NCBI GenBank assembly: GCA_045807285.1
Contig: JBJMHR010000013.1
Location: forward strand, 358,770 to 422,769
Length of the DNA: 64,000 nt
Source of the DNA: Actinomycetes bacterium
GTDB lineage: Bacteria > Actinomycetota > Actinomycetes > JAWWOW01
Direction: 5' to 3'
Shown piece by piece: positions 13,623-59,312 of the stretch. Each line of letters starts with the position of its first letter. The first letter of the stretch is position 1. A program made the position numbers and the translations under genes. The notes below the pieces were generated by a model. That model saw only the letters and a list, made by a program, of their open reading frames with translations, did no database searches and was not told the DNA's origin.

Positions 13623-13636
13623 TTGCAAATATGCAA
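13623..13636. promoter_or_regulatory. Inverted repeat TTGCAAATATGCAA in the divergent LLM/IclR intergenic region (operator candidate)
   Basis: 5-bp arms TTGCA/TGCAA separated by 4 nt, between divergent starts at 13609 and 13684. Confidence 0.35.
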
Positions 13637-13683
13637 CTGCTCGGTGCAGAATCGGAACGAACGGTAGCCCGAGGGGAGCGGAT

Positions 13684-14577: not shown

Positions 14578-14602
14578 CCGCGCGGACATGGTGCGGCTGT
14601 CG

Positions 14603-41093: not shown

Positions 41094-41125
41094 GACAGGG
41101 CACGCTAACCGACTAGCCAACCGAG

Positions 41126-42358: not shown

Positions 42359-42818
42359 CCCGGCGACCGAGCTCCCGCTCGATCTCCCGGCTGGCTTGCC
42401 GCTCAGCAAGCGTCGCGCGCTTGTCGTAGCTCTTCTTGCCTCGTGCGAGCCCGATCTCGACCTTCGCCTTGCCGTCCTTGAAGTACAGCGACAGCGGGAT
42501 CAGCGTGCGACCGCCTTCGCGCGTCTTCCCCACCAGACGTGCGATCTCCTCACGGTGCAACAAGAGCTTGCGCGCGCGACGCGGTTCATGGTTGGTCCAC
42601 GTGCCTTCGGTGTATTCGGGGATGTGCACGTTCTGGAGCCACGCCTCCCCGTCTTTGATGACTGCGAAGCCGTCGACGAGCGAGGCGTGCCCCGCCCGCA
42701 ACGACTTCACTTCGGTGCCCATGAGCACGAGCCCGGCTTCGTACACGTCCTCGATGGCGTAGTCATGGCGCGCACGTCGGTTCTGCGCGATGAGCTTGCG
42801 CCCGGACTCCTTCGGCAA
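42342..42818 (-). CDS. smpB: SsrA-binding protein
   Basis: Full-length SmpB signature ([32 protein letters not shown]...). Confidence 0.95.
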
Positions 42819-42826
42819 CGCGGCGG

Positions 42827-43996
42827 TCAGCCGCGTCCGGCCGCGCCGCTGTCAGCAAGCAGCCCGTGCAAGACCTCGACCGCGCGACTGTCCGCGACCG
42901 AGGGGGAAGCGCCGAACGGCACCTCGACGTCCGGATCGATGCCGACACCGTCGAGCGAGCGGCCGCTCGGCGTGACGTAATGGCCGACGGTCAACTCGAC
43001 GCCACTGCCGTCCGGCAGCTGCGATGGCTCCTGGACCGAACCCTTGCCGAAGCTCTGCGAGCCGACGAGGACGGCCCGGCCGCGGTCCTGCAGTGCACCC
43101 GCGACGACCTCGGCCGCGCTCGCCGTACCCCCGTTCATCAGCACCACAAGCGGTGTATCGGTGTCGCCGTCGCCCGTGGCGCCCATCCGGCGCGGGGCCT
43201 CACCTCGCCGGACGTAAGAGACCACCAAGCCGCCGTCGAGGAACGCCGAGGCAGTGCCCACCGCCTCGTCGAGCAGGCCGCCTGGGTCGTCGCGCAGGTC
43301 CAGGACGATCCCGGTGCTGCCGGCGCCGCGGGCGCGCTCGACCGCGGCCTGCACCTGTCGAGCGACGCCGCGGGTGAATGCAGCGACCCGGATACACACA
43401 ACGCCCGGAGCCAGTCGGTCCACCTCGACGTCGCCATCGACAACCTGCGTACGGCGCAGCCTGTAGTGCCGGCTCGTCGCTCCCTGCCGCACCTCGATGG
43501 TCACGAACGAGCCGGCTTTGCCACGCAACGCAGCGACGACCTCCGCAACGCTGCTGCGCGACACCGGCTGGCCGGCGACGGACACCAGCATGTCGCCGAC
43601 CTGCACACCAGCCTGCGCGGCTGAAGAGCTCGCCTGCACCGACGTGACGACGACGGCACCGTTGGCGGCCCGTCGTACCCAGAGACCGACGCCGCTGTAA
43701 CGACCGTCGAGCACGTCTTGGAAGCTCGCGTACTGCGTCGGGTCGTAGTACGTCGACCATCTGTCGCCCAGTGCGCCGAGCATTCCCTGCACCGCGGCGC
43801 GCTCGAGGTCCGCACGTGAGATCGGGTGTGCAGCGTTCTGCGCGATGTGATCGGCGGCTTGGTCCAGCACGCCTTCGCCATGCGCGTTGGCCGGCTGTTG
43901 TGTGCCGACAACACCGGTGACGACACCGGAGAGGTAAGCCGCGGCAATTGCACCCGCAACGGCAGCGGCGCGCAACCACGGACGAGTCCCGGGCAC
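42827..43996 (-). CDS. S41 family C-terminal processing peptidase with PDZ domain
   Basis: PDZ region plus S41 catalytic region ([14 protein letters not shown]...[11 protein letters not shown]). Confidence 0.85.
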
Positions 43997-44017
43997 CCCG
44001 TGATTCTAGGCGGGCCG

Positions 44018-44938
44018 TTAAACCCGGGTCGCGCGGGAGAACGAGAGCGTCAGAAAGGCGACGATCGTGGACATCAGCACGCCGATGGCCAGCACTTCGA
44101 TCCCGACGGTGCTCACGTCGCCCCACCCGACGGCGGGGCCGCGGGTGAACACCAGTGCTTTGTTCAGCTGGCCGTGTACGACCACGCTCTCGATGAGGGC
44201 CACTCCCCCGACCGCGAGCAGGCCGCCGATGAGCCCGGCAATCGCACCTTCGAGCAGGAACGGCAGCTCGATGTAGAGGTTGGACGCACCGACGAGCCGC
44301 ATGATCCCGATCTCACGCCGACGGCTGAAGACCGCGATCCGGATCGTGTTGACGATCAGTGCGACCGCAGCGAGCAGCACGCCGACCGCTGTTCCGATGG
44401 CGATGTTGCGGAACGCCTGCAGCACCCGGAAAAGCGGCGCCAACAGCTTGCGTTCGTCCTGTACGGCGAAGACGCCGGGCTGGCCGGTCAGGGCGCTGAT
44501 CAGCACGTCCGCCTTCTGCGGATCCTTGAGCTTGACCCGGAACGACTCGGGCAACGTATCCGGCGTCAGGCTGTTGAGCAGGGCCGGAATGTCCTTGAAC
44601 TGCACCTTGGCGCGCTGATAGGCCTGCTGCTTGCTCTCGTAGTAGACCCGCTCGACCTGCGGCAACGCCACGATCTCGCTGCTGATCTGGTTGCGCTGCG
44701 CATCGGTGACTGCGTGGTTGTTGCAGGGCGCTTCCTGGTCCGTGTCGGCGCACAGCTGCACGGTGACCTGGATCTTGTCGTACCAGTAACCCTTGAAGTG
44801 GTTCACCTGGCGGCTCAGCATCAAAGCGGCGCCGACCAGAATGAGCGAGACCGCGACCGTGACGACCACGGCGAGCGTCAACGTGATGTTGCGACGCAGC
44901 CCGAGAAACATCTCGGACATGACAAGACGAAGTCGCAT
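44018..44938 (-). CDS. ftsX: Cell division ABC transporter permease FtsX
   Basis: FtsX topology and conserved C-terminal TM bundle. Confidence 0.9.
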   Translation of the reverse strand: MRLRLVMSEMFLGLRRNITLTLAVVVTVAVSLILVGAALMLSRQVNHFKGYWYDKIQVTVQLCADTDQEAPCNNHAVTDAQRNQISSEIVALPQVERVYYESKQQAYQRAKVQFKDIPALLNSLTPDTLPESFRVKLKDPQKADVLISALTGQPGVFAVQDERKLLAPLFRVLQAFRNIAIGTAVGVLLAAVALIVNTIRIAVFSRRREIGIMRLVGASNLYIELPFLLEGAIAGLIGGLLAVGGVALIESVVVHGQLNKALVFTRGPAVGWGDVSTVGIEVLAIGVLMSTIVAFLTLSFSRATRV

Positions 44939-44958
44939 GCGGCGTGATCCTCGGAGCT

Positions 44959-45648
44959 CTAGTGGCTGTAGCCGTAGACGCCACGTGACTGGTCGCGGAC
45001 GACGTGGCCGCCTTCGAGCTCGACCACTCGCCTGCGCATCGAGTCGACGATCGCGGCGTCGTGTGTTGCCATCACAACGGTGGTGCCGACACGGTTGATC
45101 CGGTCGAGCAGTTTCATGATGCCGACGCTTGTCGCCGGGTCAAGGTTCCCCGTGGGCTCGTCGGCGAGCAGGATCATCGGCCGGTTGACGAACGCACGCG
45201 CGATCGCGACCCGCTGCTGCTCACCACCCGACAGCTCGTCCGGCATGCGCTCGCCCTTGCCCTGCAACCCGACGAGCTGCAGCACCTCGGGCACAACTTT
45301 CACGATGTGGTGACGCGGCCGCCCGATCACCTCGAGCGCGAATGCGACGTTCTCCGAAACGGTCTTCGTGGGCAGCAGCCGGAAGTCCTGGAACACGGTG
45401 CCGATCTGGCGGCGCAGGCCGGGCACCTTCCAGCTCGCGAGCCGGGCCAGGTCCTTGCCGGCGACGTGGATCGTCCCCTTCGACGCCTTCTCCTCACGCA
45501 GCACCAGGCGTAGGAAGGTCGACTTACCCGAGCCCGACTGGCCGACAAGGAAGACGAACTCGCCCTTCTGCACCTCGACCGAGACGCTGTCGAGAGCCGG
45601 GCGGGTCTGCGTCGGGTATTGCTTGGTGACGCGGTCGAGTCGGATCAC
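44959..45648 (-). CDS. ftsE: Cell division ATP-binding protein FtsE
   Basis: Walker [13 protein letters not shown] signature LSGGEQQR, Walker B LLADEPT. Confidence 0.95.
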
Positions 45649-45823
45649 CTGGCTGCCCCGGGGGCGGCAACTGCCATCACGGCAGCGAGTCTAGGGGCCG
45701 CGACTGTGCGTCTCCTGCAGCTCCGCCGGGTGTCACCCGTTATCTACCGAGACCTCCAGGAAGGTTTCACTCGTGCCGACACAGACGATCTGGGAAGATG
45801 AGTAGCAAGAAAGGGGCGACCGG

Positions 45824-46009
45824 ATGAGCTGCGAGCATTTGATCTGCGCGCAGTGCGCCGGGCCCGTCGCCGAGGGCCGGTGCACGGTCTGCCGTGCTGC
45901 CCGCGCGGATCTGCACGTTCACGGCCCCAATTGGTCCGTGTCGATGCTCGCGTTCATGGGCGTACTTTTGGTGCTTCTGCTGGCGCTCGCGCTGCACATG
46001 CATCCCTGA
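45824..46009 (+). CDS. Small zinc-ribbon (CxxC...CxxC) protein with C-terminal TM helix, 61 aa
   Basis: MSCEHLICAQCAGPVAEGRCTVCRAAR then hydrophobic LAFMGVLLVLLLALAL; GAAAGGGG 7 nt upstream of ATG. Confidence 0.45.
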   Translation: MSCEHLICAQCAGPVAEGRCTVCRAARADLHVHGPNWSVSMLAFMGVLLVLLLALALHMHP

Positions 46010-46015
46010 CCCGCG

Positions 46016-47116
46016 TCAGCCCTCCGCCTGCCGCCGCCACCGGATCTCGGCTTCGATGAAGTCGTCGATGTCGCCGTCGAGTACGGCGGTCGTGTTGCCG
46101 GTCTCCACATCGGTGCGGGCGTCCTTCACGAGTTGATACGGGTGCAGCACGTAGTCGCGCACCTTGTTCTCGCCTGCACCGAAGCTCGCCGACATGTGCG
46201 ACCCACGCAGCTTGTCGATCTCTTCCGCCTCTTCGCGACGGCGTAGCTCGAGCAGCTTGGCCTGCAGCACCTCGAATGCACGCGCGCGGTTTTGGAGCTG
46301 GCTGCGTTCGTTCTGGCAGGTGACAACGAGCCCGGTCGGCAGATGCGTGAGGCGTACGGCGGAGTCGGTGGTGTTGACGCCTTGACCGCCCGGCCCGCTG
46401 GACCGATAGACGTCGACCCGCACTTCCTCTTCCGGGATGTCAATGTGGTCGGTCTGCTCAACAACCGGCGTGACGTCGACGTCGGCGAAGGAAGTCTGCC
46501 GCCGAGACTGGTTGTCGAACGGTGAGATCCGCACGAGACGGTGACGTCCGTGCTCACCCGCCAAAGTTCCATACGCATAAGGAGTTTTCACGACGAACGT
46601 CGCCGACTTGATGCCGGCCTCCTCGGCGTATGACGTGTCGTAGACCTCGGTCGGATAGCCATGGCGCTCAGCCCAGCGCAGGAACATCCGAAGCAGCATC
46701 TCCGCCCAGTCGGCCGCGTCGGTGCCACCGGTGCCCGAGTTGATCGTGACGAGCGCATCGCGGGCGTCGTACTCACCGGCGAGCAGGGTGCGCACTTCGA
46801 GAGCTTCGATGTCGCGGCGGAGATTCGGCAGGTCGTCGACGCCTTCGCGCAACAGTTCGTCGTCGCCGAGCTCAACAGCGGCGGTGAGGTCGTCGACCCG
46901 CCGCCGAAGGGCTTCGAGCCGACCGAGGTCAGCGCGGAGGTGCGACATCTTGCTGGTGACCTGTTGCGCGCGCTCCTGGTCGTTCCAGAGATCGGGGTCG
47001 GCCGCTTGCCGCTCGACCTCGGCGAGGTCGGTCTGCATCCTGGCGGGGTCGAGGACAGTCTCGATCGACGTCAGCGTCGCGTCGAGGTCCTTCGCTTCCT
47101 CGGCCGGATCGGGCAC
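46016..47116 (-). CDS. prfB: Peptide chain release factor 2
   Basis: SPF...GGQ motif [23 protein letters not shown]; GTG 47116 chosen by alignment to actinobacterial RF2 N-terminus; ORF is continuous. Confidence 0.9.
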
Positions 47117-47221
47117 GGCGTCGAGGGTAGCCGGACCGGACCTGTCGGGCAGCGGACAAAGCCACGCAATCCTCACGCAACCGTGCGCAGGCAAGATCGC
47201 CCTGACGAAGGAGGGGTCGTC

Positions 47222-48269
47222 AATGTGGGTGCTGACCGCTGCTGATCTGCGCATACGGTTGCGGCAGTTCGCCATCGCCACGATCGGCACGGCCCTCGTC
47301 TTCGCCATCGCGTTGGTGGTTGCCGGGGTCGCCGGCGGGTTCCGCGCAGAGACCAAACACACCGTGGAGAGCATCGGCGCAGACGGTTTCGTCGTGCCTG
47401 CCGGCTCGGGCGGGCCGTTCTCGAGTGTTTCGGTCCTGCCCTCGTCGTTGGTAGACCAAGTACGACGGCTGCCGGGAGTGACGCAGGCGGCGCCGGTTCT
47501 CGTCTTCCAGCAACGGCTGCGAACAACGCACGGTTTCGTCTACGGCCCCGTGATCGGCGGACCGACGAGCGGGCTCGGCACGCCTCCGATCAAGGGTTTG
47601 CGGCCGCTGCGCCACGGCGAGGCCGTCGTCGACGACCTGACGAAGGTGCAGGTCGGTGAGGCCTTCAGCGTCGGGTCGGTCACGTTGCATGCGGTTGCCA
47701 AGGTGCACGGCTTCTCGATGCTGGGGGGCCTACCCGCCGTTTACCTCACCCTCGGTGACGCGCGCGCGATCGCGTTCAGCGGCCGCGATGTCGAGACGAC
47801 GGTAGCGTTTCGCGGTCATCCGAGGTCCGTGCCGGCCACCCTTCGCGTGTACACGAACCAGCAAGCACGCAGCGACGTCCTCAACCGGCTTGGCAGCGCG
47901 GTCAGCACGATAGACACATTGCAGCGCATGCTGTTCGTTGTCGGCGCCGTCATCATCGGCGCTGTCGTCTACCTGTCCTCGCTCGAGCGCCGCCGCGATT
48001 TCGCCGTGCTGAAGGCGGTCGGCTCTTCGTCGAGGTGGTTGTACGCCGGACTGGCCGCACAAGCAGTGATTGTCGCTGTGTTCGCCGCCGGGCTCGCGGT
48101 CGTGCTGTTGCCGCTGATCGCGACGTTCGTCTCCATTCCGCTGGCGGTGCCGTCGTACCAGTACTACGCGCTGCCTGGTGTGGCCGTCGTCGTCGGGATG
48201 CTCGCGAGCCTCGCCGGCCTACGTCAGGCCATCCGCGTCGACCCAGCTCAAGCGTTTGCGAACACGTGA
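47222..48269 (+). CDS. ABC transporter permease (FtsX/MacB-like)
   Basis: GAAGGAGGGG before ATG 47222; N-terminal TM, extracytoplasmic domain, C-terminal 3-TM bundle. Confidence 0.8.
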
Positions 48270-49276
48270 TGGGCCAGCCGGCGACGCCTGCAGGGATCGA
48301 GGTGCGCAACCTCACCGTCGAGTTTGCGAGCGGTGACTACGTCGTGCGTCCACTCGACGGGCTCTGGCTCGACGCGGCTGACGGCGAGCTCGTCATCTTG
48401 CTCGGCCCGAGTGGGTCGGGCAAGACGACGCTGCTCTCGGTGTTAGCGGGGATCCTGCGTCCGACCGCCGGCATGGTGTCTGTGTGCGGGCGCAACCCGT
48501 CCCGCCTCACGCCGCAGGAACTCACCGACTACCGACGGCACACCGTCGGCATCGTGTTCCAAGGCTTCAACCTCATCGCCAGCCTGTCCGCGCGCGAGAA
48601 CGCGGCCGTACCGCTGCGGTTGGCCGGCGTACATGGGCGTGCTGCGCGCAAGCGCGCCGACGAACTGCTGGCCTTGGTCGACCTGTCGACGCGTGCGCAC
48701 CACCGGCCGGGCCGGATGTCCGGCGGACAGCAGCAGCGGGTGGCGATCGCGCGGGCGCTCGCGCTCGATCCTCCTGTCCTGCTGGCGGACGAACCGACCG
48801 CGCACCTCGACCACCTGCAGGTCGAGGGCGTCATCACGCTGCTGCGCAGCCTCGCCGCTCCTGGCCGCACGGTGCTCGTGTCGACGCACGACGACCGGAT
48901 GATCCCGTTCGCCGACCGCGTCGTGGAGCTCGCACCCAGGCTCGACGCAAGCGTCGAGTCGCCACATGACCTCGAGCTCGCGAAGGGTGAAGTCTTGTTC
49001 GAGCAGGGCAGCCGCGGTCAGCTTGTCTACGTCCTCGAGTCCGGCCGGGTCGACCTGTTCCGACTCCGCGCCGACGGCAGCGAAGAAGCGGTGAAGTCCG
49101 TCAAGCCCGGCGAGTACTTCGGCGAGATGGGCCCGATCATGGGCGTCCCGCGCAGCGCAACCGCCCGCGCGGCCGTCAAGTCCACGCTGACGGCGTACTC
49201 CGTGCGCGACTTCCGCCATCGGGCCGGTGCCGATCACCGCGAAGCGGTTCGCGCGGAGGGCGACCCGGTGCGGTAG
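48269..49276 (+). CDS. ABC transporter ATP-binding protein with C-terminal cyclic-nucleotide-binding (CAP effector) domain
   Basis: Walker A GPSGSGKTT, signature MSGGQQQR, Walker B LLADEPT; C-terminal GEVLFEQGSRGQLVYVLESGRVDL...GEYFGEMG cNMP-binding pattern; TGATG overlap with permease stop. Confidence 0.85.
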   Translation: MGQPATPAGIEVRNLTVEFASGDYVVRPLDGLWLDAADGELVILLGPSGSGKTTLLSVLAGILRPTAGMVSVCGRNPSRLTPQELTDYRRHTVGIVFQGFNLIASLSARENAAVPLRLAGVHGRAARKRADELLALVDLSTRAHHRPGRMSGGQQQRVAIARALALDPPVLLADEPTAHLDHLQVEGVITLLRSLAAPGRTVLVSTHDDRMIPFADRVVELAPRLDASVESPHDLELAKGEVLFEQGSRGQLVYVLESGRVDLFRLRADGSEEAVKSVKPGEYFGEMGPIMGVPRSATARAAVKSTLTAYSVRDFRHRAGADHREAVRAEGDPVR

Positions 49277-49292
49277 GACGGTCGCGACGCAG

Positions 49293-52200
49293 CTACTGCA
49301 CCCAGAGCTGGTCGATCAGTACACCGAACTGAGTATTTCGCGCGTAGTCGCCGGTACGCGGTGAGAGCACGTCGTAGTCACGGTCGTCTTCCAGGAAGAT
49401 CCACGGCGCCTCATCGGTGACGGCGCGGTCAATCTGCGACCAAGCCAAGCCGGCGGCAGCCGAATCGCTTGTTTGCTGCTGCAGCGCCTTCTCCATCTGC
49501 GCATCGATGTGGCGATCGCAGAAGGCCCCGGAGTTGAGGTTGTTATTGGGCTGGTCGGGAAGGATCGCGCCGCACGACAGGAGGACGTGCAGCACGTCGG
49601 ACGGCTCGGGAAAGTCGAGATTCCAGCCTGCCAAGCCCGTTTGCACGTGCTTGCTGAGGTCGTTCACGTACAGGAAATACTTCTCCGCAGTGCTATCCCC
49701 GGTGTCCGGGAAGCGTTGCACCTTCGCATCGAGCCCGATCGCGCGCATCGTCGCGGCGATGGTGTAGCCGACGTCGTAGCGGTCCGGACGCGCAACAACG
49801 GTGACCTTCGCTCGTTGGGCATGTGCCTCCCGAACGAGGTTTCGCGCCATCGCCAGGTCCGGCTCGGACCACCGGCCGCCGCCGTTGGGGTGCACGGTGT
49901 AAGGGCAGTACGGCTGGTATCCGCTGATGGTGGGCGTGACGACCTGACATGTGGCCTGACTGAGCAGCGAGCCGCCGAAGGCCCGGACGATCGCGTTTCG
50001 GTCGATCGCATAGTTGACCGCCCGGCGCACGCGAACGTCGTTGAACGGTCGCTCCCTGGTGTTCAGGAAGTAGTAGTGGGTGCCGTTGGTGGCAAACGGA
50101 TGTAACTGTTGCGTCTGTGTGAGCACCAGCTTGTTCAGCTGGCCCGGCTCCATCCGGTCCGGTGTCCAGTCGTACTTGGTACCTCGCGCGACGGCAGCGA
50201 TGTCGGCCTCTGCCGACGAGTTAAACAGAGACTTGGCGATCGTGACCTCGATCCGGTCTGGGTATCCGGCTGGCTGCGCGACTGCGGACCACTGGTGGAA
50301 CCACGGGTTGCGGGTGAGCACCGTCCGCGTCTTGCTGCCGCTGGTGATCACATACGGTCCGGTCCCGCCGTGCGGTCCGAGGCCAGTGTCCCCGTGAGGG
50401 GTGCTCGGTGGTACGACATCGAGAAACGGCAACGCCAGCTTGTACAGGAACTCGGGGTCCGCAGATGTCAGGTGGATGGTGACGACGCCGGTGGCGTCGT
50501 CGGGCACGACGCCCCGTGTCAGGTCACACGCACTCGGCTTGCATGCAGGCGCCCCGACAATCGTCTGGAAGTACGGCGTCGGCTGCGGACTGACGCGCAA
50601 GGCGCGTTCAATCGACGTCCGGACGTCGCTGGCCTTCACCGGCGTACCGTCCGAGAAGCGAATACCGGGTCGCAGTCGAAACGCATACGTCTTGTCGTTG
50701 TCCGACAAGGTAGGCAGGGCCGCAGCGAGGTCCGGCACGATCTGAGCACCAGCTGGTCCACCGGTCCTGCGGTACGTGACCAAGCCGTCGTTCGTCGTCG
50801 CGAGAATTGTCCACCCGAACAGGGTGAACGAGATCGACGGGTCGAGGCTGTCCAGCTGGTCCTGTCCGGCCACGATGCGGAGCGTCCCGCCGACGTGCTG
50901 GGCGGACGAGCCGCGGGCGCTGACCCATGCGTCGTTTTTCGTCACCGCAACGCCCTGGGGAGCGTTGCCGACTTTCACCGTGTCAACAACGCGGTTCTTC
51001 TTGGGGTCGATGCGCGAGACGGTGTCGGAGTTGCTGTTCGCCACCCACACGGCGTCGCCGCTCGCGGCGGCACCGGTGGGATCACGCCCGACCGGCACGG
51101 TGGCAATGACACGGTTGGTGGCCTGGTCGATATGAGTCGCGGTGTCGTCGAGTGCATTCGTGACCCACACGCCAGTGGGGTCGATGGTGACGCCCTCGGG
51201 GCCGTTTCCGACATTCACTGCAGCAATCACGAGCAAGGTCTTCGGGTCGATGCGTGAAACGGTGGACGAACCTGAGTTCGCCACCCAGACGCTGCCGAAG
51301 CCGAACGCGATTGCCGCCGGTTGAGCGCCCACGGGAATCGTCGCTATCACCTTGTCCGATGCAGGGTCGATGACGGACACCGTGTCGTCGATGAGGTTCG
51401 TCACCCAGACCCGATCAGCTCCAAACGTGACCGCAGAGGGCCCGGTGCCCACAGGAACTGGCTCAACGACCTTTCGCGACGCTTGGTCGATCCGCGAGAC
51501 GGAGCGATCGTCTGCGTTCGTCACCCAGGCGGCGCCACCACCGAGTGCAACACCACTGGGTCCGTGGCCGACCGAGATGGTGTTCGCCGGCGCTGTCGGG
51601 TCATGCAGGTCGATGCGCGAGACGGTGTCGTCGGCGGTGTTCGCCACCCAAACCGAGCCCGCATCCGCGGCTAGCGGACCAGGCGCTGTCCCGACGGGTA
51701 CGCGCCGGTGCAATGTGCTGCCGTCGATGCTTACCGCGCCGACAGCGTTGCTGCCGATTTCGTGCAGACCACCACCGCCGCCATTCGAACGTACGCCGAC
51801 AAAGATGGCCACTGCTGCGATGACGACAAGGGTTGCACCGACCGCGATGAGTCGACGTTGCCGTCGACGCGTCGCTTCGCGAGTCGCCATCGCCGTCTGC
51901 GTGACGGCCGCCTTGAACGCCGGGTTCTCAGCCGGGTCCCCGCCGGTCGCACGCACGCGCAGCACGCGCGGCGGCTCTTCGATGCCTTTCAGCTGCACCC
52001 TGCCCCGGTCGACGTAGTCGACACCGTCAATGCGCCGCGCGAGGTGAGTCGCCTCGCTGGTGGCGAGGACCTCGCCCGCGCCGGCAAGCGAGCACAGCCG
52101 CGCCGCCATGTTGAGCGCGCCGCCGCGATAGCCGTCCTGAACCGCGACGGCTTCCCCTGAGTCGATGCCGATACCCACGCCGAAAGGGAACAGCGGCTCA

Positions 52201-52478
52201 GCGATGGTCTCTTCTACGAACCGCGCCTGCAGGTCGAGGGCGCAACGAATCGCCTGCCGCGGCGAGACAAAGACGACAAGTGCCTCGTCGCCGCGGAGCT
52301 CGAGCAAGCGACCACCACGCTCCGGCACGACCGCCTGGACGAGCTCGGCGAACCGGGCAGCCAGCTGTCCGGCAGCTTCGTCGCCGCGAGTCTGAGTGAA
52401 GCGCGTGTAGCCGCGGACGTCAGCGATCAGGAAGGTTCGGACATCAGAGCCTGCTGGTTCCGGCTCCGAGTCCCTCAT
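49293..52478 (-). CDS. Class III adenylate/guanylate cyclase fused via one TM helix to YVTN-type beta-propeller repeats and a family-5 solute-binding-protein-like domain (1061 aa)
   Basis: N-terminal cyclase homology domain (FLIADVRGYTRFTQ...GDEALVVF...GIDSGEAV), TM LIAVGATLVVIAAVAIFVGV, about seven 40-residue G.P.G.A...VWV.N..D.TVS.ID repeats, C-terminal SBP_bac_5-like region. Confidence 0.85.
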   Translation of the reverse strand: MRDSEPEPAGSDVRTFLIADVRGYTRFTQTRGDEAAGQLAARFAELVQAVVPERGGRLLELRGDEALVVFVSPRQAIRCALDLQARFVEETIAEPLFPFGVGIGIDSGEAVAVQDGYRGGALNMAARLCSLAGAGEVLATSEATHLARRIDGVDYVDRGRVQLKGIEEPPRVLRVRATGGDPAENPAFKAAVTQTAMATREATRRRQRRLIAVGATLVVIAAVAIFVGVRSNGGGGGLHEIGSNAVGAVSIDGSTLHRRVPVGTAPGPLAADAGSVWVANTADDTVSRIDLHDPTAPANTISVGHGPSGVALGGGAAWVTNADDRSVSRIDQASRKVVEPVPVGTGPSAVTFGADRVWVTNLIDDTVSVIDPASDKVIATIPVGAQPAAIAFGFGSVWVANSGSSTVSRIDPKTLLVIAAVNVGNGPEGVTIDPTGVWVTNALDDTATHIDQATNRVIATVPVGRDPTGAAASGDAVWVANSNSDTVSRIDPKKNRVVDTVKVGNAPQGVAVTKNDAWVSARGSSAQHVGGTLRIVAGQDQLDSLDPSISFTLFGWTILATTNDGLVTYRRTGGPAGAQIVPDLAAALPTLSDNDKTYAFRLRPGIRFSDGTPVKASDVRTSIERALRVSPQPTPYFQTIVGAPACKPSACDLTRGVVPDDATGVVTIHLTSADPEFLYKLALPFLDVVPPSTPHGDTGLGPHGGTGPYVITSGSKTRTVLTRNPWFHQWSAVAQPAGYPDRIEVTIAKSLFNSSAEADIAAVARGTKYDWTPDRMEPGQLNKLVLTQTQQLHPFATNGTHYYFLNTRERPFNDVRVRRAVNYAIDRNAIVRAFGGSLLSQATCQVVTPTISGYQPYCPYTVHPNGGGRWSEPDLAMARNLVREAHAQRAKVTVVARPDRYDVGYTIAATMRAIGLDAKVQRFPDTGDSTAEKYFLYVNDLSKHVQTGLAGWNLDFPEPSDVLHVLLSCGAILPDQPNNNLNSGAFCDRHIDAQMEKALQQQTSDSAAAGLAWSQIDRAVTDEAPWIFLEDDRDYDVLSPRTGDYARNTQFGVLIDQLWVQ

Positions 52479-52578
52479 CGGTCCCTCCCCGCGCCGAAAG
52501 TGATCTTAGTCTCGAATCGAGGTCGAATCTCGAAGACGCCGATGCCGGCGATCACGTCGTCGCCGAATCCATAACCGG

Positions 52579-53025
52579 TCAAACGGTGGCAGTCCGCGCG
52601 CTTGCCTCGGCGTCGACGTTCACGGATCGGGCGCCACCCGTGAAGAAGCCGGTGAACGGCAACAGGACGCGACAGTGCACACCGACGCGGACCGTTGTCC
52701 CGTCAGCACTGATCTGCGGGTCGTCCAACGTCAGGTCAGTGAACCGGGCGGCCAGGCCGTTGCGATCGGCGTACGACTCGATGGCGGCCTGCGCGGCGGC
52801 CGGATCAATGCGAAGGTCACCGGAGGCACCATCGCGGTAGAACGCCGCTCGGTTAATGGCCTGGACAGCCGCGATGGCTGCGCCGTCGGCGGTCGACGCC
52901 AGCGCCCGACGGGCCAGATAGACCTTCGACACATCCGTCACAACCATGACGACCGCGGCGGCGATCAAGAAGTAGACCAGGACCAGCAACAACAGCTGCC
53001 CCGAGTCGTCGCGTCTCACCCGCAT
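52579..53025 (-). CDS. TadE/TadG-like pilus assembly (pseudopilin-like) protein
   Basis: N-terminal TM LLLLVLVYFLIAAAVVMVV; position in tad locus. Confidence 0.55.
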   Translation of the reverse strand: MRVRRDDSGQLLLLVLVYFLIAAAVVMVVTDVSKVYLARRALASTADGAAIAAVQAINRAAFYRDGASGDLRIDPAAAQAAIESYADRNGLAARFTDLTLDDPQISADGTTVRVGVHCRVLLPFTGFFTGGARSVNVDAEASARTATV

Positions 53026-53480
53026 GTCGTCTGCCCAGGTGGTGGCGCAGCGACAGCCTGAGCGAAGCAGTCGACGACCTCGTCGTGGTTGCCGTGCACG
53101 GCGATCGTCGCCGTCGACTGCCCGAACGACGGCAGCAACGGCAGCGCGACGTCGCCGTCGATCCGCACATGGATCGCACCGCCCGCCGTGTCACATTCCG
53201 GGAATTCGCAGGTGATCTGTAGTTGACCCGGCGCCAGGTCGAGACCCTGGTCACGCATCGCGAGCCGCGCCGCTTCGAACGCGTCGTCGTACGCCGACCC
53301 CTTTGCTCCTTCGGCGACGAAGACTCGCCCCGCCTCCCGGGTCGCCGCCGTCACGGCGTACGCCGACTTCTGAATATCGAGGGCGATGAGAATCGCGTAG
53401 ATGAGCGGCAAAAGCAGGAGCACTGCGAGGAACGAGAACTCCACGATCGCGTTGCCCTCGTCGCCGGAAAGCCGCTTCAT
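53016..53480 (-). CDS. TadE-like protein
   Basis: GNAIVEFSFLAVLLLLPL TadE N-terminal motif. Confidence 0.65.
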   Translation of the reverse strand: MKRLSGDEGNAIVEFSFLAVLLLLPLIYAILIALDIQKSAYAVTAATREAGRVFVAEGAKGSAYDDAFEAARLAMRDQGLDLAPGQLQITCEFPECDTAGGAIHVRIDGDVALPLLPSFGQSTATIAVHGNHDEVVDCFAQAVAAPPPGQTTCG

Positions 53481-53863
53481 CGGTGCTCTTGTAGTGCGTG
53501 GCCGTGTACAACAAGAGCGCGCGACGGCCCGGCGAACGCAACGACCGGCAGCGGCGCCTTGACCGTCATCTCAACAATCGGCGCGCCGCTGTCCATCACC
53601 ACTAGCCCGTGCACGTCGTCGGCGTACGACGCGCGGAGGCTGCTCGTGATGCAGTCCTTTGTACGCGTCTCTCCGTCGGCCAGCGTGCGGTCGGCGTTCG
53701 CGGCGTACCGCGCGCCTTCGCTCGCACATGCCACCAGTGTGTTCCGCACATGCAGGTCGAGCCCCAGTTGTACGACGCCGAGGAACAGCGGCGTCAACAA
53801 CAACCCGCCCACGAGGACGAAGTCCACCGGAGCGGCACCACGGTCGCCCCTTCGCCGAAGCAT
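53477..53863 (-). CDS. TadE-like protein
   Basis: APVDFVLVGGLLLTPLFLGVVQLG TadE-like N-terminus. Confidence 0.65.
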   Translation of the reverse strand: MLRRRGDRGAAPVDFVLVGGLLLTPLFLGVVQLGLDLHVRNTLVACASEGARYAANADRTLADGETRTKDCITSSLRASYADDVHGLVVMDSGAPIVEMTVKAPLPVVAFAGPSRALVVHGHALQEHR

Positions 53864-53865
53864 CG

Positions 53866-54054
53866 TCAGGGCGTCAAGCCACCCACGGCATTGACAGCTT
53901 TGCTGAACACATTGCCGAGCAGCGGGCTCGCGATACCGAATAATGCGATCACCAACGCCGCGGTCATGATGGTGACCAATACCCAGCCCGGCACATCGCC
54001 GCGCTCACCGTCAACCAGCGTCTGCTGCAGACGGACGATCAACCTTTCGAGCAT
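53866..54054 (-). CDS. Flp-type pilin-like small protein (DUF4244-like)
   Basis: 62 aa with single hydrophobic helix GWVLVTIMTAALVIALFGIA; sits between tadC and tadE-like genes as flp does in actinobacterial tad loci. Confidence 0.5.
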   Translation of the reverse strand: MLERLIVRLQQTLVDGERGDVPGWVLVTIMTAALVIALFGIASPLLGNVFSKAVNAVGGLTP

Positions 54055-54063
54055 GGTCCCTCC

Positions 54064-55002
54064 TCAGGGCGTGCTGAATGTGAGCCCGTAGTAACCGGGA
54101 AACAGCGCGAACAGAACAGTCACGGGAAGGATCAGGAACACGACCGGGATCATCATGGCGATCTCTTTGCGTCCACCCGATTCGAGCAAGGCGCGTCGAC
54201 CGGCTTCGCGCACGTCGATCGCCTGCGCGCGAAGCACATCGGCGAGCGGCGTACCTCGTTCGACGGCGATGACCATGCCGTCGACGAAGCGTGCGAGAGC
54301 GGAGATCGAGGTGCGCGCAGCGAGCGCATCCAGCGCGGTCGTCAACGCGACACCGGATCGCGACTCGGCCAATGCCCGCCGCAGCTCACCCGCGAGCTCG
54401 CCGCCGCTGATGCGTGACACGCGATCAATGGCGCCGACCAGACCTTCGCCCGCTGTGACGGCGAGGACGAGCAACTCCGCCACGGTCGGTAGTTCGGCGA
54501 GGATTCGCGACTCTCGCTCGCGAACTTCGCGTGAGAGCCACCGGTCTCGGGTCAACACTCCCGCAATGACGCCTGCGAACGTCAGCGCAAGGACAGGAAC
54601 TGCCGCGGTGACACCCCGTCGTACCCCGATGAGCAAGCCAAGAGCGAGGCCGACAGTCGCGCCGACGGTCCCCCATACGACTTGCTCTGCGCGGAACTCC
54701 TCGAGCGACATCCCGCGACCGGCTTGTTCCAGCCGGCGCCGGACTGGGCCCGATCCACCGAGCAACCGATCGAGCGCGCGCACCGCATCACCAAGAACCG
54801 GCCGAACAATCCGCTCTGCGGTCGGGAACGGCGTGAACGTGCGGTCACTCGCGAGCAGACGTGACGGTTGCGGCGCATCGAGCAAGTACGGCGCAAGGCG
54901 GCTATCGAGCAGCCGGCGCCGGCGCAGCACCGGTGTCGCAGCAACCGCCATAACGATTCCGGTGCCGGCGAGCAAGCCGAGCGCGGCTCCGGTGCCGTTC
55001 AT
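54064..55002 (-). CDS. tadC: Tad pilus inner-membrane protein TadC (type II secretion system F family)
   Basis: T2SS-F-like membrane protein; ATGA overlap with tadB stop. Confidence 0.7.
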   Translation of the reverse strand: MNGTGAALGLLAGTGIVMAVAATPVLRRRRLLDSRLAPYLLDAPQPSRLLASDRTFTPFPTAERIVRPVLGDAVRALDRLLGGSGPVRRRLEQAGRGMSLEEFRAEQVVWGTVGATVGLALGLLIGVRRGVTAAVPVLALTFAGVIAGVLTRDRWLSREVRERESRILAELPTVAELLVLAVTAGEGLVGAIDRVSRISGGELAGELRRALAESRSGVALTTALDALAARTSISALARFVDGMVIAVERGTPLADVLRAQAIDVREAGRRALLESGGRKEIAMMIPVVFLILPVTVLFALFPGYYGLTFSTP

Positions 55003-55856
55003 CGCAGCACCCGACGTTCCTGTGGCAGGCGGCCGATCCGCAGCATCAATCGGTAGGCCGAAAACGAGACTCCCCCGCCGACGAGCAGGATGACGACGCC
55101 GGCTGCGGAGTTGTACGCCGCAGCGGCTTGGCGGTTCAGGGCCAGCAGGCCCAACATGACCCAAGGCGCAGCCAGGGCAAGTCGCGCGCCGTTGACGGTC
55201 CACCCCTGTCGCGTCTCGAGCTCCGCGCGCGTGCGCGCGTCCTCACGTAAGAACGCGGACAGTGTGCGCAGCAGACGGCCGAGATCTGTCCCACCGACCT
55301 CCCGCGCGACCCGAAGCGACTCGACAATGCGATCAGCGACAGGGTCGGCGAGCGCGTCTTTCAACCGGTCGAGGCACTCGACAAAGCGGCCGCTCACCCG
55401 ATAGTCCACGGCGAAACGCTGGAATGGCCGGCGCAACGGCTCGGGCCCGCGCGTCGCCACCTCAGCCACGGCCTCGGGCAACGCCAGGCCCGCACGCACG
55501 CCAGACGCGATGTTGTCGACGACATCCGGCCATACGTCGCGCAGCTCTGTGGTTCGCCGGCGCTCCCGATAGCGCACCATCGTCAACGGCGCCACCGCGG
55601 CGAACACTGCGAACGCAAGGGCAATGGTCGGGGAACGGGAGACGGCTGCCGACGCAATGAACACGACGACTGCGGAAGTGGCGCACAGCGCGTAGAACTG
55701 GGCCGGACGCACCGATTCGACGCCGGCGCGGGTGAGCAGCTCCTGAGTGTGATCGGACAGCGATCGCCGACGACCAGCACGCTCGATTCGCCTGGACCCT
55801 GACTGCCAAGCGAGCAGGACGCCGATGCCGAAGAGCAGGCCGACGAGCGCACCCAT
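54999..55856 (-). CDS. tadB: Tad pilus inner-membrane protein TadB (type II secretion system F family)
   Basis: T2SS-F-like membrane protein; start overlaps tadA stop (TGATG). Confidence 0.7.
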   Translation of the reverse strand: MGALVGLLFGIGVLLAWQSGSRRIERAGRRRSLSDHTQELLTRAGVESVRPAQFYALCATSAVVVFIASAAVSRSPTIALAFAVFAAVAPLTMVRYRERRRTTELRDVWPDVVDNIASGVRAGLALPEAVAEVATRGPEPLRRPFQRFAVDYRVSGRFVECLDRLKDALADPVADRIVESLRVAREVGGTDLGRLLRTLSAFLREDARTRAELETRQGWTVNGARLALAAPWVMLGLLALNRQAAAAYNSAAGVVILLVGGGVSFSAYRLMLRIGRLPQERRVLR

Positions 55857-57103
55857 CAGCGCAGCAACTGCACGATGTCGAAACCGGCACTTGCGAACCG
55901 CTCGATGTGCGGAGGGAAGCCGTTGGCGCGGACGAGCGAGTCGTCCCGTCTCGTGAACAGATCCGCGATCTCGATGACGTCACCCTCGACGCGGCCCGGC
56001 ACCGCCACGATCTCGGTCACTCGTCGCTGGCCCTCCCTATCGGTCTCGATGTGCACCACGACGTCGACGGACGACGCGACGGTCGGTACGACGAAGGAGT
56101 GGTTGACGTTTTCACCAGCGAGCAACGGCAACGTGCACATCTTCATCACTGCTTCGCGCGCAGAGTTCGCATGGATGCTGCACATGCCTGGCAGACCACT
56201 GTTCAGCGCGATCAGGAGGTCGAGACACTCTGCCTGGCGGACCTCGCCCACCACTATGCGTGACGGACGCATGCGGAGGGCCTCTTTCACAAGGCGCCGC
56301 AACGGGATCTCACCGGTGCCCTCGAGGTTCGGCTGCCGCGTCTGCATCGACACGACGTCCGGCAAGGGGATCTTCAGCTCGAAGACCTCTTCCGTCGTGA
56401 TCACGCGTTCCCGCGCCGGAATGGCCGCGGCCAAGCAATTGAGAAGGGTGGTTTTGCCTGCTTGGGTCCCGCCCGCGACGATGACGTTGAGCCCTGCGAC
56501 GACAGCGGCCTCGAGGAAGCGCGCAGCCTGTGCCGTCAGCGTGCCAAGCGCAACCAGCTCGTCCAGCGAGTGCGCGCGCAGCACGAATTTCCGGATGTTC
56601 ACGGCCCAATGCCGGCGAGTGATGTCCGGGATCACGACATGCAGACGCGAGCCGTCGGACAGCATCGCGTCAACGAAGGGCATCGACAGGTCCACCCTGC
56701 GACCCGACGCCTTGAGCATGCGTTCGACGAGCTCGCGCACCTGCGCCGTGGTGAGGATGGTGTTGGTGAGCTCCGAGCGTCCGCACCGAGCGATGAACAC
56801 TCTGCCCGGCTCGTTGATCCAAATTTCCTCGACTGTCGGATCGTCGAGGTAGCGCTGCAATGGTCCGAGCCCCGCCACCGCGTCGTACAACATCCGCGCA
56901 GCGCCGGCCTGGTCGGCGACCTGCGGAAGGCTGCTCGTCAACGACCGCTCGTCGTAGTCGGCGAGCACGTCGTCGATTAACCGGCGGATCGCGCCGGCGT
57001 CCACCTCCGGATCGAGGCCACGCCGCCGGACCAGCTCGCGGACTTCGCCCTCGACCATCCCGAGTGCGTGCACGCCGCCTCCCCGTCGGCTCGTGAGAGC
57101 CAA
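55856..57103 (-). CDS. tadA: TadA/CpaF type II/IV secretion system ATPase
   Basis: Walker A AGGTQAGKTT, Asp box, Walker B, His box (CSIHANS); start may be GTG near 57073. Confidence 0.9.
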   Translation of the reverse strand: MALTSRRGGGVHALGMVEGEVRELVRRRGLDPEVDAGAIRRLIDDVLADYDERSLTSSLPQVADQAGAARMLYDAVAGLGPLQRYLDDPTVEEIWINEPGRVFIARCGRSELTNTILTTAQVRELVERMLKASGRRVDLSMPFVDAMLSDGSRLHVVIPDITRRHWAVNIRKFVLRAHSLDELVALGTLTAQAARFLEAAVVAGLNVIVAGGTQAGKTTLLNCLAAAIPARERVITTEEVFELKIPLPDVVSMQTRQPNLEGTGEIPLRRLVKEALRMRPSRIVVGEVRQAECLDLLIALNSGLPGMCSIHANSAREAVMKMCTLPLLAGENVNHSFVVPTVASSVDVVVHIETDREGQRRVTEIVAVPGRVEGDVIEIADLFTRRDDSLVRANGFPPHIERFASAGFDIVQLLR

Positions 57104-57251
57104 GGTGCGAACACAGTTATTACGGGGAAGGGCGCAGACACTAGTGCGTGGTGATCCGCCCGGCTAGTCCCATTTCGTCGTTCTGTGGACAACGAACCGG
57201 ACGAACAAGTACTGCAAACATCACGCGCATCAGCCGTGCCCGGTCAGCCGG

Positions 57252-59195: not shown

Positions 59196-59312
59196 ACTGA
59201 CTCCCCCGTCAGTCCAGATGCCGCGGCTCGGCACGCGTCCCGGACCGTACTACTCATACCGGGCTGTTTGCCAGATGTCCTCGCCGTGAGTTTCCGGTCA
59301 CGGTATGACGAA

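Follow-up and report, generated by a model that had tools for sequence, protein, structure and literature searches.

The locus described here lies within a 64-kb stretch of DNA (hereafter the window) and consists of an ABC transporter gene pair on the plus strand converging on one long gene on the minus strand. The pair encodes a 348-residue permease of the FtsX/MacB type (type VII ABC; 47223..48269) and an ABC ATPase with a C-terminal cNMP-binding (CNB) domain (48266..49276; 335 residues counted from the ATG at 48269). Facing them is the gene for a single-pass, receptor-type class III nucleotidyl cyclase of 1061 residues (49293..52478; NCBI MFL6239487.1). The two convergent stop codons are separated by a spacer of 16 nt (49277..49292), where a terminator scan detected no terminator-like hairpin. 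An earlier description made from the letters of the DNA (the sequence-only reading) had named these parts, and all are present, with the corrections that the permease starts at 47223 rather than 47222 and that the convergent gap is 16 rather than 17 nt. On its other side, the cyclase gene follows the last TadE-like gene after a 100-nt spacer (52479..52578) and is co-directional with this upstream Tad operon. The spacer contains GGGGAGGG 6 nt before the cyclase ATG, along with a relatively AT-rich stretch, and may hold the gene's own promoter; a promoter scan upstream of the cyclase returned no match to the sigma-70 consensus, and an Rfam scan of 42000-58000 returned no RNA family. The sole cyclase domain and the sole CNB domain of the window are immediate neighbours, and a lone cyclase side by side with a lone CNB domain has the appearance expected of a functional pair.

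The architecture of the transporter bears out the suggestion of an Rv0072/Rv0073-like permease and ATPase with a CNB domain at the end of the latter. The permease begins at ATG 47223, with the Shine-Dalgarno sequence GAAGGAGG 8 nt upstream, and matches FtsX (PF02687, 5.7e-10); its MacB_PCD score in the Pfam scan was 21.5 bits, under the cut-off of 27. Hydropathy gives four transmembrane (TM) segments in total, with an extracytoplasmic domain of ~185 residues between TM1 and TM2-4. The ATPase, which is identical to NCBI MFL6239486.1, starts at GTG 48266 or ATG 48269 and overlaps the permease stop codon (GTGATG), which suggests translational coupling. Its nucleotide-binding domain (ABC_tran, 3.1e-32) is catalytically complete by motif, with Walker A at residue 46 (GPSGSGKTT), the signature at 151 (SGGQQQR), the Walker B glutamate at 171 (LLADEPT), and the H-loop at 204 (VSTHD). 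The CNB domain spans residues 236-316 (48974..49216, plus strand; PF00027, 1.2e-19) and carries a phosphate-binding cassette, FGEMGPIMGVPRSATARA (residues 284-301), that is an R-S-A version of the expected pattern G-E ... R-S/T-A. G285, E286, and R295 do not vary, and 120 of 121 aligned sequences have A297; judged by these residues, the cassette is intact and the domain is predicted to be ligand-competent. In close relatives, the pair is divergent and adjoins prfB-ftsE-ftsX-S41 protease-smpB. This conserved position beside ftsEX hints at a role in the cell envelope.

At NCBI, the long convergent protein is annotated as an "ABC transporter substrate-binding protein." From N- to C-terminus, however, its order is a class III cyclase domain, one TM helix, a seven-bladed YVTN propeller, and an OppA-like SBP_bac_5 domain, all encoded on the minus strand. 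The cyclase homology domain covers residues 12-178 (51945..52445) and is supported by an ungapped alignment to the cyclase Ma1120 and by conservation in homologues. The TM helix (residues 209-231; 51786..51854; hydropathy maximum 2.78) is preceded by RRRQRR, which by the positive-inside rule places the N-terminus in the cytoplasm. The propeller (residues ~245-525; 50904..51746; TIGR02276, 2.6e-46) is built of seven repeats with an exact 40-residue period that start at residues 262 to 503, and these are also visible in the DNA as 120-nt repeats. The remainder, residues ~530-1061 (49296..50891), is a cluster C, OppA/DppA-like solute-binding domain that matched PF00496 over residues 579-970 in the Pfam scan (1e-50) and has six cysteines (646/651, 844/858, 969/987), each either invariant or conserved to 90% or more. 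Foldseek retrieved OppA2 of S. clavuligerus as its best match (2WOP; E 1.8e-33; target-normalised TM score 0.85), and the further matches were peptide and murein-tripeptide binders, a fold near OppA, DppA, and MppA. An AlphaFold2 model built with 113 homologues (mean pLDDT 92.2) contains a predicted cyclase fold, a long linker-plus-TM helix, 28 strands corresponding to seven blades, and a two-lobed solute-binding domain. Helices are modelled at 186-208 and 218-231, with low pLDDT across the TM region. In the cyclase domain, the predicted order is strand 12-21, helices 24-31 and 33-53, strands 57-62 and 65-70, helix 73-93, and strand 101-113 (pLDDT >85). Domain HMMs, hydropathy, and the model together confirm the topology first proposed, that is, a cytoplasmic N-terminal cyclase with a large C-terminal ectodomain, as in a type II membrane protein, and what had been described as about seven blades followed by an SBP_bac_5-like domain proved to be just that.

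The cyclase domain itself is weaker, as seen by profile, than the sequence-only reading implied. The Pfam scan of the full-length protein at E<=0.01 did not report PF00211, and on the isolated N-terminus this model scored 22.0 bits, with its gathering score at 21.9. Despite this weak score, sequence comparison makes homology to class III cyclases secure, because phmmer against the PDB aligned Ma1120 of M. avium without gaps over 164 residues (1.9e-17) and the NCBIfam LipJ cyclase model matched at 4.4e-11. The top-scoring PDB match was the KDA->EGY mutant of Ma1120 (5D0G). All of 120 homologues retain the metal residues D20 and D64 and the transition-state residues N123 and R127, which speaks against the pseudo-cyclase that would have undone the earlier proposal. 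By its residues the protein is not a pseudo-enzyme; the catalytic set is complete, and activity is predicted. When full-length proteins are scanned, this cyclase domain scores no higher than the Pfam threshold, and present annotation practice systematically misses it.

Comparison with relatives reveals that the cyclase gene is a recent, lineage-specific, single-gene insertion. In the closest relative (locus L083), whose ATPase is 88% identical, the cyclase is absent as a clean single-gene indel from an otherwise collinear block that reaches back to ~8 kb before the permease gene and takes in ftsEX-prfB, the ABC pair, and the Tad genes. With blastn, this locus is collinear with the window on both sides of the cyclase (78% and 75% nucleotide identity), and positions 49233-52584 occupy the place of 123 bp. 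Relatives at 76% identity carry other genes at the cyclase position and no cyclase. A search around the inserted gene for marks of a mobile element, including flanking repeats in direct or inverted orientation, returned nothing beyond the 120-nt repeats that encode the blades and short matches due to chance. Tad pilus genes were considered as partners of the cyclase and rejected, given that none of 80 homologous loci has Tad genes and that the relative has a Tad operon without the cyclase. Nor is the transporter a conserved neighbour by the co-conservation check that the sequence-only reading had itself named: the permease lies beside none of the cyclase homologues (0/80 cyclase-family loci), and the present cyclase type occurs at none of 86 CNB-ABC loci. 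Some class III cyclase is found within 10 kb at six of these 86 loci, and other cyclase types lie near the pair at four (L088, L134, L147, and L156). Taken together, cyclases of all types show no significant enrichment next to the pair (4 near versus 2 far, P=0.33). On the scale of these 86 loci, there may still be a loose domain-level association of CNB-ABC loci with class III cyclases. Because the cyclase gene is a single-gene insertion, the cyclase and the ABC pair are neighbours, not the conserved dedicated module that had been suggested.

Proteins related to the receptor form a large family in uncultured Actinomycetota from soil; its members are annotated as "substrate-binding protein" (at JGI, "peptide/nickel transport system substrate-binding protein"), and we found no description of the family in the literature searched. 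The DUF2652 "cyclase-like" family, also considered, is a different and soluble one. At E<=1e-30, the clade of N-terminal cyclase domains comprises 738 clusters at 50% identity from soil Actinomycetota and Chloroflexota, with receptor, STAND-WD40, LuxR, and kinase architectures; clade mates of the receptor carry the domain at the N-terminus of nSTAND1-WD40, AAA_16-TPR-LuxR, and AAA_16-kinase proteins. Clustering of all flanking open reading frames (ORFs) from 82 cyclase-family loci identified no conserved partner gene, the largest cluster (10 loci) being a common BTAD-kinase-STAND-WD40 paralogue family, and no recurring Opp/Dpp-type permease cluster. CNB genes did appear near the family: 11 of the 82 loci have 12 in all, and six of these genes are no more than 1.1 kb away, where 2.3 would be expected (P ~0.008, a value not corrected for shared ancestry). 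Four homologous loci have a gene for a Crp-type regulator that begins 3-14 bp beyond the stop codon of the cyclase, although these loci may go back to one single event, and the closest homologue of the cyclase (66% identical) has a CNB-oxidoreductase 1 kb away. Accordingly, the cyclase family associates with cNMP receptors in general.

The sequence-only reading had called the enzyme an adenylate cyclase that makes cAMP, a claim from which the base-specifying residues lead away. The Lys/Asp (or Lys/Thr) pair of adenylate cyclases is absent, and in its place are E60 and G116, which align with K55/D111 of Ma1120 (K101/D157 in full-length numbering). This assignment combines the ungapped Ma1120 alignment with the published correspondence between Ma1120 and Cya2, the latter being our seventh-ranked match, and it is not an alignment artefact, because other cyclases in the same loci show Lys/Asp. 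Conservation is high: E60 occurs in 116 and G116 in 118 of 120 homologues, and the signature D-E-D-G-N-A-R is shared by 74 of 106 cyclase-domain ORFs in the alignment of the 82 loci, most of the others being partial ORFs or other cyclase types. It was also found in 138 of 142 newly returned library representatives among the best 150 listed. A Glu at the Lys position with Gly, Cys, or Ser at the Asp position is characteristic of Cya2-type guanylate cyclases, and E60/G116 has this form. Cya2 itself has the Glu-Gly pair, and the K101E/D157G exchange in Ma1120 cost 84% of adenylate cyclase activity while raising guanylate cyclase activity by 414% at pH 7.5 (PMC4215837). Glu is the main determinant for GTP, and 5D0G is a dual-specificity EGY mutant bound to GTP (PMC7384201). 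A Tyr beside the catalytic Arg boosts guanylate cyclase activity in Cya2 (PMC4215837); here it is replaced by A126, and Ala is found at this position in at least 90% of the family. Prediction of substrate from two residues is imperfect, since in some cyclases the Lys-to-Glu exchange abolished activity and no guanylate cyclase activity was gained (PMC4215837). Because the base-recognising pair is Glu/Gly, we predict that the product is cGMP, either alone or together with cAMP, rather than cAMP by itself. It is possible, but rather unlikely, that the protein is an adenylate cyclase after all, in which Glu/Gly is a peculiarity of the clade and cAMP is the physiological product. To our knowledge, nearly all characterised class III cyclases of actinobacteria are adenylate cyclases; Rv0386 still has adenylate cyclase activity with a non-canonical Gln/Asn pair, the Cya2 Tyr is missing here, and the Ma1120 EGY mutant is dual-specific rather than GTP-specific. 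Set against this are the role of Glu at the Lys position as the principal GTP determinant in solved guanylate cyclase complexes (PMC7384201), the loss of 92% of Ma1120 adenylate cyclase activity at pH 7.5 through the Lys-to-Glu exchange by itself, and the strong purifying selection on the Glu/Gly pair over hundreds of clusters.

The relationship of the cyclase to its neighbour also admits more than one explanation. The cyclase could feed the adjoining ATPase through a diffusible nucleotide pool, and the sole indication of a dedicated pairing is adjacency in this one genome. We consider it improbable that the cyclase was recruited beside the CNB-ABC pair so that locally made nucleotide specifically gates the ATPase. 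The genes are 16 nt apart, the 64 kb hold no other cyclase or CNB domain, and both domains are predicted to be functional; moreover, family members elsewhere adjoin dedicated CNB effectors (the Crp operons and the CNB-oxidoreductase), and four CNB-ABC loci have other cyclase types close by. Yet the convergent orientation precludes co-transcription, the collinear locus of the 88%-identical relative and those of the 76% relatives manage without the cyclase, and neither survey of loci (80 and 86) found the permease and this receptor type together or a significant proximity of cyclases in general. A further reading, in which the protein is a tethered substrate-binding protein for an ABC importer and its N-terminal domain a non-catalytic anchor or dimerisation module, would fit the names given to it and its homologues by NCBI and JGI as well as the OppA/DppA/MppA-like fold. 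This appears very improbable, however, given that the neighbouring ABC system is of the FtsX/MacB type, which works without substrate-binding proteins, that Opp/Dpp-type permeases do not recur near the 82 family loci, and that invariant catalytic residues are not required of a mere anchor.

Taking domain content, residue conservation, the synteny and indel, and the lack of co-conservation together, we think it fairly likely that the locus brings two separately inherited parts of cyclic-nucleotide signalling tail to tail, with a cyclase that is predicted to make cGMP or cGMP plus cAMP, and that it contains no dedicated module. For this arrangement, we infer the following course from ligand to transporter. 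A ligand outside the cell, most probably a peptide or a compound resembling one, would bind the OppA-like domain, the propeller, or both, and thereby change how the dimer is arranged along the one TM helix and the linker helix of ~25 residues. The N-terminal catalytic domains would then pair head to tail as the homodimer on which all class III cyclases depend. Being diffusible, the nucleotide could reach any CNB protein in the cell, the neighbouring ATPase included; there, binding to the CNB domain may tune ATP hydrolysis and with it whatever mechanical or efflux work the external domain of the permease performs. In other members of the family, the adjacent effector is a Crp-type transcription factor.

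Bacterial cGMP signalling is regarded as rare and is represented by a handful of characterised cyclases. A 2004 survey, listed among the references of PMC4215837, has "a dearth of guanylylcyclases" in its title, and we know of no guanylate cyclase in Actinomycetota. If the Glu/Gly clade does make cGMP, soil actinobacteria carry hundreds of unrecognised guanylate cyclases, many of which would be surface receptors now annotated as transporter substrate-binding proteins. We tentatively suggest, as an idea with less than an even chance, that the D-E-D-G-N-A-R clade is a large unrecognised bacterial family of guanylate or dual-specificity cyclases, the receptor branch of which senses extracellular peptide-like ligands with its inverted cyclase-TM-propeller-SBP layout; its cGMP signal would reach both regulators of the Crp type and transporters fused to a CNB domain, the type VII ABC ATPase next door among them. 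The inverted topology of the receptor further poses a mechanistic question, namely how a signal reaches the cyclase dimer without the usual N-terminal helical transducer.

Each part of the locus has counterparts among known systems. The CNB-bearing type VII pair is an uncharacterised counterpart of Rv0072/Rv0073 and Rv2563/Rv2564 of M. tuberculosis, which likewise combine a four-TM FtsX-type permease that has an external domain with an ATPase of ~330 residues ending in a cNMP-binding domain, encoded by adjacent, overlapping genes; in the present lineage, unlike there, the pair is syntenic with prfB-ftsEX-smpB. The likeness is one of architecture (PMC7761784) and of the PF00027 assignment of Rv2564 (PMC4886424). 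Rv0072/Rv0073 have been placed among type VII ABC systems, and the name of glutamine transporter has been given to both M. tuberculosis pairs on a weak basis (PMC7761784). A literature search for Rv0073 together with "cyclic nucleotide" found no paper. The catalytic domain resembles Cya2 of Synechocystis PCC 6803 (2W01) and the 5D0G mutant in being a class III domain with two metal Asp, Asn/Arg, and Glu/Gly, of a kind that works as a homodimer in those proteins, but here it is N-terminal, is followed by a TM helix and an 830-residue ectodomain, and has Ala for the Cya2 Tyr. Its clade also contains cyclase domains at the N-terminus of STAND NTPases, a fusion like that of the Rv0386-like cyclase-AAA-TPR-LuxR proteins; these fusions are soluble, and Rv0386 itself is reported to have Gln/Asn rather than Glu/Gly. 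In topology and logic, the receptor matches PknD-like actinobacterial receptor Ser/Thr kinases (kinase-TM-beta-propeller), with an N-terminal, dimer-active catalytic domain in the cytoplasm, one TM helix, and a C-terminal propeller, except that its output is a nucleotidyl cyclase and that a solute-binding domain is added. Finally, the trypanosomal GRESAG4/ESAG4 adenylate cyclases and the natriuretic-peptide receptor guanylate cyclases of animals are also single-pass proteins with a solute-binding-protein fold outside and a class III dimer inside. Those receptors are ordered ectodomain-TM-cyclase and use a type I (LivJ-like) periplasmic-binding-protein fold, whereas the present protein inverts the order to cyclase-TM-ectodomain, places a cluster C, OppA-like domain after a seven-bladed propeller, and does so without a kinase-homology or helical transducer domain.

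The 1061-aa protein encoded on the minus strand at 49293-52478, convergent with an ABC ATPase gene, proved to have the domain order that the sequence-only reading gave it. Domain models, hydropathy, AlphaFold2, and Foldseek agree on an N-terminal cyclase, a lone membrane helix, a propeller, and a solute-binding domain. Specifically, residues 579-970 matched SBP_bac_5 (1e-50), and the YVTN propeller repeat (TIGR02276; 2.6e-46) was found seven times, starting at residues 262, 303, 343, 383, 423, 463, and 503, with an essentially constant period of 40 aa that also shows up as 120-nt repeats in the DNA. The one hydrophobic helix (residues 209-231) is preceded by RRRQRR, so the N-terminus should be cytoplasmic. 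Furthermore, the ectodomain has six cysteines, each invariant or at least 90% conserved, which is consistent with an extracytoplasmic location. The cyclase domain was not reported in a Pfam scan of the full-length protein (E ≤ 0.01), and it scored 22.0 bits against a cut-off of 21.9 when scanned alone. It aligned with the solved Mycobacterium avium cyclase Ma1120 over 164 residues with zero gaps (1.9e-17) and also matched the catalytic domains of 3MR7, LipJ/Rv1900c, Cya2, Rv1264, and CyaB. The AlphaFold2 model, built on an alignment of 113 homologues (mean pLDDT 92.2, pTM 0.78), places a cyclase fold at residues 12-177, helices at 186-208 and 218-231 that lead out of the catalytic domain and into the membrane, seven blades made of 28 strands at 245-522, and a two-lobed binding protein at 532-1061. 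With Foldseek, the binding domain was closest to OppA2 of Streptomyces clavuligerus (TM 0.85, normalised to the target); binders of dipeptides, oligopeptides, glutathione, and murein tripeptide came next.

The catalytic domain retains a complete set of catalytic residues. The metal ligands (D20 and D64) and the transition-state pair (N123/R127), assigned by alignment with Ma1120, are invariant in 120 homologues (41-66% identity), so the objection that this is a pseudo-cyclase fails. The sequence-only reading also named cAMP as the product, and here the ATP/GTP-specifying residues point elsewhere. The Lys/Asp pair of adenylate cyclases, K55/D111 in Ma1120 (K101/D157 in full-length numbering), is replaced by Glu60 and Gly116, which are kept in 116 and 118 of the 120 homologues, respectively. 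This is not an alignment artefact, because other cyclase domains in the same fetched loci read K/D (or K/T, K/L) with the same model. In the PDB, the top-scoring sequence was the KDA->EGY mutant of Ma1120 (5D0G) rather than the wild type; the mutant has dual specificity and was crystallised in complex with GTP (PMC7384201). An E-G pair is present in the bacterial guanylate cyclase Cya2 (PMC4215837), and structures of guanylate cyclases with GTP bound attribute specificity mainly to the Glu contact (PMC7384201). In Ma1120, K101E alone removed 92% of adenylate cyclase activity at pH 7.5, and K101E/D157G gave the best guanylate cyclase gain of the double mutants (+414%) while adenylate cyclase activity fell by 84%; in other cyclases, these substitutions abolished activity and brought no conversion (PMC4215837). 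The position of the activity-boosting Tyr of Cya2 is Ala126 in our protein. Judged from these residues, cGMP, or both nucleotides, is a more likely product than cAMP only.

The receptor belongs to a large family that goes by other names. The exact protein is NCBI MFL6239487.1, named "ABC transporter substrate-binding protein", and comes from a MAG with the label "Actinomycetes bacterium". JGI names for its homologues are "YVTN family beta-propeller protein" or "peptide/nickel transport system substrate-binding protein". Public annotation has missed the cyclase domain because its score only reaches or falls short of the Pfam threshold, and we found no description of the family in the searchable literature. 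Its closest homologue is just 66% identical. Full-length relatives (about 1050 aa) number in the thousands in metagenomes, and at least 522 loci in GTDB species representatives encode relatives. The 80 GTDB loci that we fetched are all from MAGs, mostly of Actinomycetota (including Gaiellales and Thermoleophilia) and some of Chloroflexota. One homologue (locus L056, 9769-10780) is split within its N-terminal domain into two overlapping ORFs, reflecting a frameshift or an assembly error. With the catalytic domain alone as the query, we recovered 738 clusters (50% identity, E ≤ 1e-30). Among the best 150, the signature D-E-D-G-N-A-R, read at D20, E60, D64, G116, N123, A126, and R127, was present in 138 of 142 newly returned representatives, whatever region comes next. 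The C-terminal regions were TM-propeller-SBP, TM-propeller, nSTAND1-WD40, AAA_16-TPR-LuxR, and AAA_16-kinase. Thus, sequence comparison portrays the catalytic domain as a mobile N-terminal output module, with the receptor as one architecture among several. Glu/Gly cyclase domains were also seen at the N-termini of individual nSTAND1-WD40, AAA_16-TPR-LuxR, BTAD-kinase-nSTAND1-WD40, and AAA_16-kinase proteins (P0264, P0317, P0341, P0322, and P0343), where they behave like a portable unit for output or effector functions.

The convergent ABC pair lies on the plus strand in a region of about 67% G+C. The 348-aa permease (ATG at 47223, to 48269) starts 8 nt downstream of GAAGGAGG. Its domain match is FtsX permease (5.7e-10); the MacB periplasmic core domain scored under the threshold. 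Its hydropathy profile has TM1, a hydrophilic stretch of about 185 residues, and then three further TM segments. The 335-aa ATPase, whose start overlaps the permease stop (GTGATG), ends at 49276, and the stop codon of the cyclase begins 16 nt beyond. In addition to ABC_tran (3.1e-32), the ATPase matched a C-terminal cyclic-nucleotide-binding (CNB) domain (cNMP_binding, residues 236-316, 1.2e-19). Its ATPase motifs comprise Walker A, the signature, Walker B including the catalytic Glu, and the H-loop. Within the phosphate-binding cassette (FGEMGPIMGVPRSATARA), all 121 aligned sequences share G285, E286, and R295, and 120 of them have A297. The Mycobacterium tuberculosis counterparts of the pair, Rv0072/73 and Rv2563/64, are uncharacterised and non-essential (PMC7761784). 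The pair is divergent from prfB (42830-49276; also in ATPase-family loci L083 and L085-L087), after which come the true ftsE-ftsX and an S41 (Ctp-like) PDZ protease, with smpB too in relatives. This block is collinear in relatives whose ATPase is 72-88% identical, and the linkage is gone at 69% or below. Such a position, conserved in the lineage, suggests an envelope-related function, as a lead only; an FtsEX paralogue retained next to ftsEX may have an envelope or division role.

The pairing of cyclase and transporter was not co-conserved, contrary to what a dedicated module would predict. Across the 80 GTDB cyclase-family loci, with flanks of up to 10 kb, tblastn with our permease returned no locus, a search for Tad genes returned none, and the CNB segment of the ATPase matched once, in a SulP transporter. 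Clustering of all flanking ORFs did not reveal a conserved partner. Conservation is far higher for the ATPase than for the cyclase, and ATPase relatives that are 88%, 76%, and 69% identical lie on long contigs. The 88% relative has smpB, S41 protease, ftsX, ftsE, and prfB in that order, then the divergently transcribed permease and CNB-ATPase, and the Tad genes directly after them. Positions 1095-10953 of the closest relative, L083, align to window 39386-49233 (78% DNA identity) and 11076-15697 to 52584-57203 (75%), so that the cyclase gene with its short spacers (49233-52584) stands in place of 123 bp. The 76% relatives, Frankiales MAGs, carry a TPR-LuxR gene and others at this site. Because the 88% relative is collinear without the cyclase and the 76% relatives have other genes there, the cyclase is a single-gene insertion specific to this lineage, placed where two convergent transcription units meet. 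A search of its flanks turned up neither repeats nor other signs of a mobile element.

From the transporter side, we assembled 86 CNB-ABC loci (80 metagenome loci retrieved with the CNB segment and six non-duplicate loci of ATPase relatives). Six encoded a class III cyclase (two, L083 and L088, from the loci of ATPase relatives), including LipJ-like, CHASE2, and STAND types, and none of the 86 encoded the receptor type. The base-recognising pairs of the six were K/D in three, Lys with a non-Asp residue (K/G, K/L) in two, and N/N in one. Four lay within 3 kb of the ABC pair and two beyond, with near and far flanks of 222 versus 231 kb (P = 0.33). On two unrelated contigs, CNB-ABC pairs are preceded, at a distance of 0.7-1.3 kb, by LipJ-like alpha/beta-hydrolase-cyclase fusions of the Lys/Asp type (L088, 4691-6025; L156, 1722-3224). 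The 64-kb window has just one cyclase domain and one CNB domain, those of the two neighbouring genes, and the two may have a local functional link.

Upstream of the cyclase, a complete Tad/Flp-type pilus gene set occupies 52582-57103 on the minus strand, with a CpaF/TadA ATPase, two T2SSF membrane proteins, and three TadE/TadG-like pseudopilins; relatives have an additional 62-aa gene, probably for the Flp pilin. At the far end of this set, L083 has a 1092-aa STAND-type cyclase of the Lys type (Guanylate_cyc-AAA_16-TPR; 15728-19006), whereas the window has a 665-aa BNR-repeat protein (57255-59249). Given these differences, both ends of the Tad operon are indel hot spots, with a different cyclase at one end in each genome. 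Repeated TTCGAG/ATTCGA motifs (cttcgagattcgacctcgattcgagac; 52500-52545, minus strand) occur where the 100-nt spacer before the cyclase start is locally richer in AT, and could be an operator or promoter element.

Some other family members have receptors for cyclic nucleotides nearby. An iteratively built CNB profile detected 12 CNB genes, spread over 11 of the 82 cyclase-family loci. In four of these, a Crp-family regulator (cNMP_binding plus HTH_Crp_2) begins 3-14 bp past the cyclase stop on the same strand (L028, 3486-4178; L031, 13150-13821; L034, 13135-13794; L042, 13086-13754), forming apparent two-gene operons. A Crp gene is divergent in L056, 689 bp upstream; a CNB-flavoprotein gene lies 1 kb upstream in L081, the locus of the 66% homologue; and at other loci the CNB gene encodes a transporter, SulP-STAS-CNB or MFS-CNB. 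Of the 12, six were within 1.1 kb versus 2.3 expected from the available flanks (P of about 0.008, uncorrected for shared ancestry), and the family cyclases in CNB-bearing loci all have the E/G signature. The family is thus repeatedly wired to cyclic-nucleotide receptors, with a partner that varies from case to case, which supports the prediction of real nucleotide production. CNB domains were also observed at the C-termini of transporters, two tandem SulP-STAS-CNB and several MFS-CNB (L012, 4862-9503; L017, 4288-6030; L077, 3697-5709; L089, 9059-10813), and gating of transport by cyclic nucleotides seems widespread among these soil lineages.

Taken together, the parts of the proposed cAMP module look functional, but the E/G pair makes cGMP the likelier product and the pairing is not conserved. 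What emerges is a large family of receptor-type cyclases with inverted topology and guanylate-cyclase-like specificity residues, systematically mis-annotated as transporter binding proteins. Class III cyclases must dimerise to be active, and their active sites are located at the dimer interface. Given the full catalytic set, the single TM helix, and the propeller plus OppA-like ectodomain, the simplest model is that binding of a ligand outside would alter or induce dimerisation of the receptor. This change could be relayed through the TM and linker helices, of which helix 186-208 bridges the catalytic domain's C-terminal end and the membrane, so that the two catalytic domains would be aligned. 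The predicted product, cGMP or both nucleotides, would then diffuse to CNB proteins. In this organism, one such target may be the type VII ABC ATPase next door, whose ATP hydrolysis would be modulated by nucleotide bound at its C-terminal domain. Actinobacterial receptor kinases have the same topology, and the relay proposed for the cyclase would be analogous to theirs.
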